From: Octopus vulgaris
Taxonomy: Eukaryota
Reading direction: 5' to 3'
DNA: 64,000 nucleotides
NCBI GenBank assembly: GCA_951406725.2
Contig: OX597816.1
Span: forward strand, 124,062,001-124,126,000
Each line of letters begins with the position of its first letter. The stretch's first letter is position 1. A program made the translations under genes and the position numbers. The notes beneath the pieces are model-generated. The model did not search any database and was not told where the DNA came from. It saw only the letters and a program-made list of their open reading frames with translations. This document shows positions 44,835 through 46,472 of the stretch, piece by piece.

Positions 44835-45107
44835 ATAAAGCGATGGCTTGTTGCCAACATAATGTGGCAGTCCCAGGAAAGGGAAGCATGCGACTGCTAT
44901 TTAGCTCCAATAAACACTGTTTCTAGAAAGCTAAATGACACAAGTGTTCCGTGTCCTTAAGTTTTCAAACTGTTTGAAAACTTAAGGACACGGAACACTT
45001 GTGCCATTTAGCTTTCTAGAAACAGTGTTTATTGGAGCTAAATAGCAGTCACATGCTTCCCTTTCCTGGGACTGCCACATTATGTTGGCAATAAGCCATC
45101 GCTTTAT
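44835..45107. repeat. Near-perfect palindrome, 136-bp arms, 1-nt spacer at 44971
   Basis: ...ccttaagttttcaaac t gtttgaaaacttaagg...; arms resemble the pseudo-LTR at 24310-24425. Confidence 0.95.
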
Positions 45108-45200: not shown

Positions 45201-45251
45201 AGCTTCTACAGGACTAGAACTGTTTCATTCAAAAGAAATCATCAGGAAGCT
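45201..45251 (-). ncRNA. Type I hammerhead motif
   Basis: agcttc CTGATGA tttc tttt gaat GAAA cag ttctagtc ctg TA gaagct; note the U-U opposition at the base of stem II. Confidence 0.75.
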
Positions 45252-45566
45252 AGGTGACAAGAATAGTTTTGGCATTTATACATTTAGGCAGATTTAAAGT
45301 GGTGGTGGTGGGGGACTTTTTGGGGTAGGCATGGCGCAAACTGTCTTTCTTAGGGGAGTGGTCAAAAGAATCAGTGATAAAGTAGATAAAAGAATAAATA
45401 GAATGAAGTTTTAGGTAAAAAAGAAGACTATCACTTATATATATATACATATATATATACATACATATATATATATATATATACATATACACACATACAT
45501 ACATACATATATATATATATATGCACCCACATACATACATATACGTACACACCCATACACATACTC

Positions 45567-45617
45567 AGCTTCCTGATGATTTCTTTTGAATGAAACAGTT
45601 CTAGTCCTGTAGAAGCT
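45567..45617 (+). ncRNA. Type I hammerhead motif, identical inverted copy
   Basis: Same sequence as the reverse complement of 45201-45251. Confidence 0.75.
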
Positions 45618-45700
45618 CCTTCTATAAAATAAATTAATTTACTCTGCTATGTATTGAGTACCTTATTTACTGTGGTTAACCCCGACTCAACCCGGGACCT

Positions 45701-45734
<34 letters not shown>

Positions 45735-45802
45735 TTAATAAGGGTCGTATTTATCGTTATGGTAAAATCTGGCGTGTGATTGAGTGGATTTCATCCAGAT
45801 AG

Positions 45803-45884
45803 TTTTGGCTGACGAGCTACAAGTGGATTTTTTTGTAAGTAAAATTACATTTAATTCATTAATAGCGAAACAATTGTCCCAAAA
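45803..45884 (+). ncRNA. Type I hammerhead ribozyme with fully canonical core and GUC cleavage site (after 45878)
   Basis: ttttgg CTGACGA gcta [about 43 nt] tagc GAAA c aatt g TC ccaaaa. Confidence 0.85.
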
Positions 45885-46030
45885 ATAATCTGTATTTTTG
45901 TTATTTTTTATTTGCCCTGTCCGTGTGAGCTAACAATCGTACTGACTTTCATGGGAAATATGTATTTTTGTGGTTAAAACCTTTTGGATTAACTGGTGCT
46001 AGAGTGAGCCATATAGTGACCACTCTCTTA

Positions 46031-46172
<142 letters not shown>

Positions 46173-46186
46173 GACATATATATTTG

Positions 46187-46472
46187 TGGAGGTGCAATGG
46201 CCCAGTGGTTAGGCCAGTGGACTCGCAGTCGTAGGATCGTAGTTTCAATTCTCAGACCGGGCATTTTGAGTGTTTATTGAGGCTCTGGCAGGGGGTTGTG
46301 GTGATCCCTGCTGTACTCTTTCACCACAACTTTTTCTCACTCTTTCTTCTGTTGGCCTGCTCACTTAGCCAGTGGGGTGGTGTCATTGAAGGCTAAAATA
46401 ATGTGAACCGCATAGTGACCAGCGATGTGTAGCAACATCTGATGGGCCTGGTCGGTCATGTGATTACATGAT
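46187..46472 (+). mobile_element. tRNA-derived SINE family C with RTE-like 3' tail
   Basis: tRNA-like head gcaatggcccagtggttagg...gtttcaattc; tail gtgaccagcg...ctggtcggtcatgtgat matches the RTE end at 23606-23660. Confidence 0.75.

Follow-up and report, generated by a model that had tools for sequence, protein, structure and literature searches.

According to the accessible parts of the literature, animal non-LTR retrozymes are low-GC tandem repeats with type I hammerheads that give rise to RNAs, both linear and circular, of 170–400 nt (PMC7229834). Retrozymes were tied to the pseudo-LTRs (pLTRs) of Penelope by Li, Clavereau and Pollet (2026) (bioRxiv 10.64898/2026.07.22.740005); in the same work, cleavage in vitro was detected for one of nine predicted frog retrozymes and for none of the other eight. 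Penelope-like elements are characterized by inverted pLTRs, a 30–40-bp tail at one end, and a bias for (TA)n targets (PMC3846280, PMC8557442), and the tail sits on one of the inverted pLTRs (PMC3846280). The Penelope reverse transcriptase (RT) uses two internal start sites matching the tail; both DNA strands are cut and extended, and the protein is predicted to be a dimer (PMC11167929). In vitro, the anole Penelope protein showed a start site that was alike on both strands, and ribozyme cleavage was not needed (PMC11167929).

The window considered here, i.e., the whole analyzed stretch of 64,000 nt from the Octopus vulgaris genome, contains an intact hammerhead in a truncated, two-armed repeat copy. 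The copy is likely that of a non-LTR retrozyme put into a (TA)n tract by a Penelope-like RT/endonuclease. The genomic sequence establishes the hammerhead motif and the monomer, the number of copies, the (TA)n target, both fixed ends, and the haplotype shared by the arms.

Hammerhead motif in the window

A scan of both strands with a strict descriptor gave a sole match in the 64 kb, at 45803–45884. All nucleotides of the type I hammerhead core were checked by position, and the core is complete. The following features were assigned:

45803–45808 with 45879–45884, plus strand: stem I, 6 bp
45796–45892, plus strand: extended helix I (6 bp followed, beyond an internal loop, by 5 bp, 45796–45800/45888–45892)
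45809–45815, plus strand: core C3–A9, CUGACGA; position 7 is C, G, or A among copies
45816/45866, plus strand: G10.1–C11.1 pair
45816–45866, plus strand: helix II (4 bp, 2x2 A-rich internal loop, 8 bp, internal loop, 5-bp hairpin; fold prediction)
45834–45849, plus strand: terminal hairpin of helix II, 5 bp, with the 6-nt loop GUAAAA
45867–45870, plus strand: GAAA
45871–45876, plus strand: CAAUUG, palindromic helix III
45877 and 45878, plus strand: U16.1 and C17
45867–45878, plus strand: GAAA, palindromic helix III, and GUC; cut predicted after C45878
45881–45885, plus strand: five-A run, where the family has four A; the unpaired U is shifted from 1.7 to 1.8

The core C3–A9, G12–A14, the 15.1–16.1 pair, H17, and the three helices with helix I open, all of which define the hammerhead class, are thus present. 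The initial annotation, made from the sequence alone, had described the core nucleotides as intact and stem I as 6 bp long, and every base that it listed is found at its position. Two other elements of that description hold in part. The CAAUUG of stem III is indeed a palindrome; as a stem of a single copy it amounts to 2 bp plus a 4-nt loop. As for the long loop II of about 43 nt, a 43-nt insert is located at 45820–45862; its interpretation as a loop was rejected, since the insert is predicted to fold as an extension of helix II capped by 6 nt.

The motif shares with the canonical metazoan type I hammerhead (PMC4209133) the 6-bp helix I, the 4-bp proximal helix II, the 2-bp helix III with a palindromic 4-nt loop, and the G10.1–C11.1 pair. 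Unlike the canonical form, it is Rfam-divergent, and its helix II, rather than closing with a tetraloop, is continued beyond an internal loop. The Rfam search at the gathering score found no hammerhead match in the 64-kb window, and hammerhead families were absent from the 33 weak matches obtained up to E 10 at 45400–46200. The motif is likely too divergent for detection, presumably owing to the 43-nt insert.

The fold of the 96-nt stretch around the motif has a z-score of −3.2. Matches with stem I of at least 6 bp and stem II of at least 4 bp appeared in 2 of 40 simulated windows (third-order Markov copies). By itself, the motif is modestly beyond chance, which is suggestive and not conclusive; the reality of the motif is settled by the evidence from the repeat family.

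Additional pairs of hammerhead-like cores in head-to-head orientation were seen in the window at 45212–45245 (minus)/45573–45606 (plus), 41927 (minus)/41989 (plus), and 24045 (minus)/24232 (plus). The first of them, nearest to the motif, is without a proper helix I. All three pairs belong to other, older repeat families.

Structure of the insertion

The hammerhead had been placed in a unit of about 290 bp (45740–46028) lying between (TA)n tracts and resembling a solo pseudo-LTR or a retrozyme monomer. The tracts were confirmed. The actual extent of the unit is 45726–46037, and it is composed of two arms in opposite orientation, as follows (monomer positions are numbered from the cut site):

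45703–45729, unstranded: (TA)n tract on the left, target of the insertion; overlapped at its end by the inverted arm
45726–45745, minus strand: inverted arm, 20 nt; monomer 270–289, 100% match in reverse, ending at fixed site B
45746–46037, plus strand: forward arm, 292 nt; monomer 401–533 followed by 1–158, 5'-truncated, ending at site A
46001–46037, plus strand: site A end with a predicted hairpin (46001–46026); a similar hairpin precedes the same end in the sister family
46029–46156, unstranded: right (TA)n or mixed microsatellite tract

The forward arm shows three differences from the monomer of locus L004. Since the window carries only monomer positions 401–533, 1–158, and the inverted 270–289 (292 of 533 nt), the insertion is not a monomer; complete monomers occur elsewhere, in tandem arrays. 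The retrozyme assignment gains support at the level of the family. The designation of the unit as a solo pseudo-LTR does not agree with the data: the units are arranged head to tail without an intervening ORF, and no sequence is common to them and the sampled coding Penelope-like elements.

Two other repeats were noted in the vicinity. A repeat head resembling a tRNA-derived SINE is located just to the right of the insertion (46186–46260). At 44835–45107, an inverted repeat begins at a (TA)n tract; its 136-bp arms, separated by 1 nt, are 98% complementary.

Repeat family and monomer

A genome search for further copies, which the initial annotation had suggested, was performed on 2.8 Gb in 227 contigs. 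With the unit as the query, it yielded 1,075 candidates, and the 40 candidates scored among them were 98–100% identical. An exact pattern that extends over the hairpin of helix II and over helix III, and that picks up both the family and a sister family, gave 676 + 670 = 1,346 matches for the two families together and 0 matches in the reversed control. In the tandem arrays, the monomer measures 533–535 nt between cut sites, and units of up to 539 nt occur. Its GC content is 32%, and the longest stop-free frame is 87 aa. The predicted fold of the circular monomer has an energy of −149.5 kcal/mol vs. −105.7 ± 5.4 kcal/mol for 40 shuffles (z −8.1). The ribozyme sequence is identical in 36 of the first 43 distinct copies, and core position 7 is free to vary between copies of the family.

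The family is therefore noncoding and low in GC, as retrozymes are, and it forms tandem arrays typical of the class, the window copy itself being a partial solo copy. Like the animal non-LTR retrozymes (PMC7229834; bioRxiv 10.64898/2026.07.22.740005), it is a noncoding tandem repeat of low GC content, each unit of which contains one type I hammerhead, and it likewise has dispersed partial copies, a strongly self-paired predicted circle, and Penelope-like elements in the same genome. It differs from them in the monomer length, 533–538 nt vs. about 170–400 nt (PMC7229834) or 51–972 bp (bioRxiv 10.64898/2026.07.22.740005), as well as in a helix II longer by 43 nt and in that no pLTR homologue was found in the loci sampled. 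Judged by its sequence, it counts as a new family among the animal non-LTR retrozymes already known.

Two-ended footprint of the insertions

The insertions occupy (TA)n tracts either as one arm or as two head-to-head arms, with arm lengths from 20 nt to 6.6 kb and up to 12 units per arm. The 5' ends of the arms are variable. The 3' ends fall at site A (about 154–164) or at site B (about 276–291), 128 nt apart, and are followed by (TA)n.

Because the sequence queries had biased one arm, a position-ordered sample was taken as well: within the first 100 pattern matches on one contig, every site of the family was included, 32 in all. Sixteen of the 32 sites were two-armed, all of them head to head, and in every case (16/16) one arm ended at A and the other at B; an independent choice of ends would give this result with a probability of about 0.5 to the power 16. 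The remaining 16 sites were single arms (10 A, 6 B), one of which was truncated at its 5' side. The query-biased set comprised 39 sites from two queries, including 27 with two or more arms, the window among them. One of the 27 is cut by the locus edge and was left out; 24 of the 26 assessable sites were A+B and 2 had one irregular end, with neither AA nor BB observed. The 24 include one site called A from the printed flank despite two substitutions and one that holds a 20-nt internal piece. In the sister family, 20 loci gave 14 A+B, 4 single, and 2 other arrangements, and the ends are 116 nt apart.

The family thus shows the features of a Penelope-type footprint, namely, 5' truncation, head-to-head inversion, a tail at one end, and a (TA)n target. 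According to the accessible descriptions of EN+ Penelope-like elements (PMC3846280, PMC8557442, PMC11167929), 5' truncation, partial tandems, head-to-head inversion, the (TA)n target, extension at one end, and two internal start sites are common to both. The family differs from them in having no ORF. Its ends are also more widely spaced (128 nt, and 116 nt in the sister family, vs. the published 30–40 nt and about 40 nt in the coding element of the same genome), and in nearly every inversion its two ends are used one each. Head-to-head arms with two fixed ends are absent from the accessible text of the retrozyme descriptions compared (PMC7229834; bioRxiv 10.64898/2026.07.22.740005). A literature search, mostly outside subscription journals, found neither a one-end-each count nor the 128-nt spacing nor a description of the family.

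Sister family and covariation

The sister family was found beside an unrelated element and is represented by 2,425 candidates. Its monomer of 528–530 nt has 52% identity to that of the window family. Thirty loci were used in the comparison, one of which (L050) was read on the wrong strand. The covariation alignment contained 3 family rows and 5 sister rows and is effectively one comparison of two lineages. Compensatory changes on both sides were detected in 8 of its 20 pairs, including 5 of 6 in proximal helix I and 3 of 4 in helix II. Overall, 96.8% of the aligned cells pair, vs. 31–43% for slid controls. The hairpin stem (8/8 rows), helix III, and the distal pairs of helix I are invariant between the families, and all five aligned sister rows carry U-U in place of G10.1–C11.1. 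A lack of stem conservation in other copies had been named in advance as the observation that would speak against the motif; the stems proved to be conserved and to covary within these two lineages. The compensatory changes in helices I and II, together with the free position 7, indicate selection on the ribozyme fold.

A third hammerhead family was noticed at L197:50–760 and at about position 240 of L125. It has the same palindromic helix III and a short helix II, consists itself of head-to-head arms, and adjoins a copy of the window family.

Template of copying

Units differ by 0.26% if taken from one arm and by 0.32% if taken from opposite arms, compared with 2.9% for copies from different insertions of the position-ordered sample; by this comparison, the two arms of an insertion share one haplotype. 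As for the arm 5' ends, 4 of 47 are close to the cut site, where 3.4 would be expected. A linear cleaved monomer was rejected as the template because the 5' ends are not in excess at the cut site. Since the arms read through this site, have 5' ends that are not enriched there, and reach 6.6 kb, the template would be either a circle or an uncut multimer.

The main alternative to a retrozyme copied from circles differs from it in the template only: Penelope-mediated mobilization would proceed from uncut multimeric transcripts, with the ribozyme and the circles being a side product or a passenger. We consider this alternative a serious one, if somewhat short of an even chance. The frequent reading of arms through the cut site with no enrichment of 5' ends is what it predicts, and ribozyme cleavage is dispensable in vitro according to the accessible data (PMC11167929). 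The recurrence of variants within one array also fits it. At L222:516–9315, a head-to-head array of 4 + 12 units, the same minor variants come up in several units, in one arm as well as in the other. Three variants are each present in several units of a 14-unit array, and two of the three occur in both of its arms; this favours a mixed multimer or later conversion over a single monomer circle there. On the other hand, the units of most arrays are near-uniform, with small indels and scattered changes only, the circular monomer folds far better than its shuffles, and the compensatory changes in helices I and II with the free position 7 point to selection on the fold, all of which speaks against this alternative. 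For circles as the main template, as opposed to uncut multimers, the balance is about even or slightly in their favour.

Penelope-like elements in the genome

The GIY-YIG search of the genome listed 148 matches, and autonomous Penelope-like elements, expected alongside a retrozyme, are present in it. The first coding family has a 781-aa RT + GIY-YIG frame behind a second ORF, contains pLTRs, and is flanked by (TA)n tracts. It possesses two 3' ends about 40 nt apart. In all 11 inverted insertions of this family (41 loci), located in (TA)n, the tail is on one arm only, the query having forced the tail onto one arm in 9 of the 11. The second coding family is very young and has frames of 1,311–1,312 aa (L193, L194, L153–L172), often in divergent pairs; the 150 scored of its 9,768 candidates are all 99–100% identical over 173 aa, and no clear hammerhead was found in the loci of this family that were looked at. 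The third Penelope-like family is older.

Two observations concern hammerhead-like sequences in these elements. The two-ORF Penelope-like family (L064:640–675 and the related loci L035–L060) contains a hammerhead-like core with U3 and A8 replacing C3 and G8, presumably retaining the 3–8 pair. In a locus of the older family (L178:2292–2379), there is an 89-nt match to the sister family with 72% identity (E 0.001), which may be the trace of a related pLTR or of a decayed insertion.

A partial sample of 114 Penelope-search loci (42 GIY-YIG, 70 further, and 2 stretches of the 1,311-aa family) was compared with the monomer dimer. No shared sequence was detected in them, the strong matches being separate insertions of the two non-coding families only, and in none of the sampled loci does the unit flank an RT + GIY-YIG ORF. 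These data bear on the possibility that the unit is the pLTR of an unsampled autonomous Penelope-like element, with the window copy being its truncated end. The target, the head-to-head arms, and the one-sided tail are as in an autonomous element, and frog retrozymes resemble pLTRs in the accessible text (bioRxiv 10.64898/2026.07.22.740005). Nevertheless, this possibility is improbable, considering that arrays with as many as 12 units per arm consist of head-to-tail units without an ORF, that no copy in the arm maps enters a long coding stretch (ORFs were scanned in the first 30 loci), and that the monomer sequence is unmatched in the 114 loci apart from the separate insertions. It is hardly credible that the repeat is a satellite or foldback DNA that spread through recombination at the DNA level and carries a hammerhead that is dead or due to chance: DNA repair can yield tandem arrays and inverted arms, and the strict motif arises in some simulated windows (2/40), but the fixed 3' ends with variable 5' ends, the dispersal across many contigs, the A+B rule common to a coding retroelement, and the covarying ribozyme stems all speak against it.

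Cleavage prospects of the window copy

The motif had been put forward as the best candidate active ribozyme. For the window copy this is doubtful, as it is solo and has a 2-bp helix III and a private extra A; it is probably a poor ribozyme candidate on sequence grounds, and we consider it rather unlikely to cut well by itself. The calculated energy of helix III is +1.7 kcal/mol as a single hairpin vs. −7.0 to −7.8 kcal/mol as an 8-bp self-duplex of two copies. According to the accessible literature, a short palindromic helix III impedes cleavage of the monomer and acts as a dimer in tandem repeats (PMC4209133).

The extra A after the cut site was found in 1 of 43 copies, the window copy itself, and in 0 of 92 further copies; it could be a mutation or an assembly error. 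In solved hammerheads, the U at 1.7 contacts loop II (PMC11875169). In the family, the base at this position is an unpaired or wobble U, whereas the window copy has A; U1.7 and the A beside the 4-bp helix II are conserved in both families and are out of register in the window copy. According to the fold prediction, stem I pairs with probabilities of 0.45–0.96, down from 0.99–1.0, and within the 302-nt unit these probabilities are 0. Relative to the predicted minimum, the hammerhead fold is less stable by 5.6 kcal/mol locally and by 9.1 kcal/mol in the window's own unit. Holding one ribozyme, the window copy would not be able to release a monomer, and efficient cutting would require a partner in trans.

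Possible expression signals

The family sequence is present in 19 of 21 read-run rows, whose kinds are guessed or unknown, with no confirmed RNA run listed. Contigs of four runs were compared with genomic copies; they carry no strand, end, or circularity information, and the comparison has no matched DNA run and no silent-stretch control. In the contigs of three guessed-RNA runs, the A>G : T>C ratios were 14:2, 8:2, and 6:2, as opposed to 12:12 and 16:16 in genomic copies. Among the 15 listed A>G places, 11 have no G in 70–91 copies, 1 is a genomic variant, and 3 are uncovered; one of the 11 turned up as a genomic variant in a later comparison. The A>G excess (L004:900–2300) includes places in the 3' strand of helix I. 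One guessed-RNA run gave a single 565-nt contig, i.e., about one unit plus 30. The A>G excess and the 565-nt contig hint at an edited (A-to-I) sense RNA and a cyclic unit and, without matched DNA, are left uncounted as evidence here.

Proposed mechanism and significance

For the retrozyme mobilized by a Penelope-like enzyme, the following course of events may be suggested. Tandem arrays would be transcribed, and adjacent hammerheads would pair via the palindromic helix III and cut after GUC, which would give monomers. By analogy with published retrozymes, these would be circularized by a host ligase. A Penelope enzyme, probably a dimer, would nick a (TA)n tract on each strand, and reverse transcription of a circular or uncut multimeric RNA would be primed at site A (about 161) by one of the 3' ends and at site B (about 289) by the second. 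The two cDNAs, often running through the ribozyme site, would be joined head to head, and single-arm copies would arise when just one priming survives. The window copy, with its long A arm and 20-nt B arm, may be such a product.

A more tentative suggestion, which we regard as possible rather than probable, is that one circular ribozyme RNA offers the Penelope dimer two dedicated start signals, one per DNA strand and neither used twice. The tail would then reflect the spacing of the binding sites of the subunits, extended from about 40 to 128 nt with structured arms, and the GUAAAA hairpin of the extended helix II, which has stayed constant as other parts of the ribozyme drifted, might be a protein-binding handle coupling the ribozyme to its helper.

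The ribozyme is ordinary in kind except for its long helix II. The formation of the head-to-head insertions of Penelope-like elements and of their one-sided tail is an open question in the field, and the link between retrozymes and Penelope has so far rested on co-occurrence and pLTR similarity. The family provides a countable footprint, namely, two starts 128 nt apart, used one each, with single-haplotype arms, and it has an analogue in a coding element of the genome. The model of priming at two sites on two strands would be directly testable with a small RNA.
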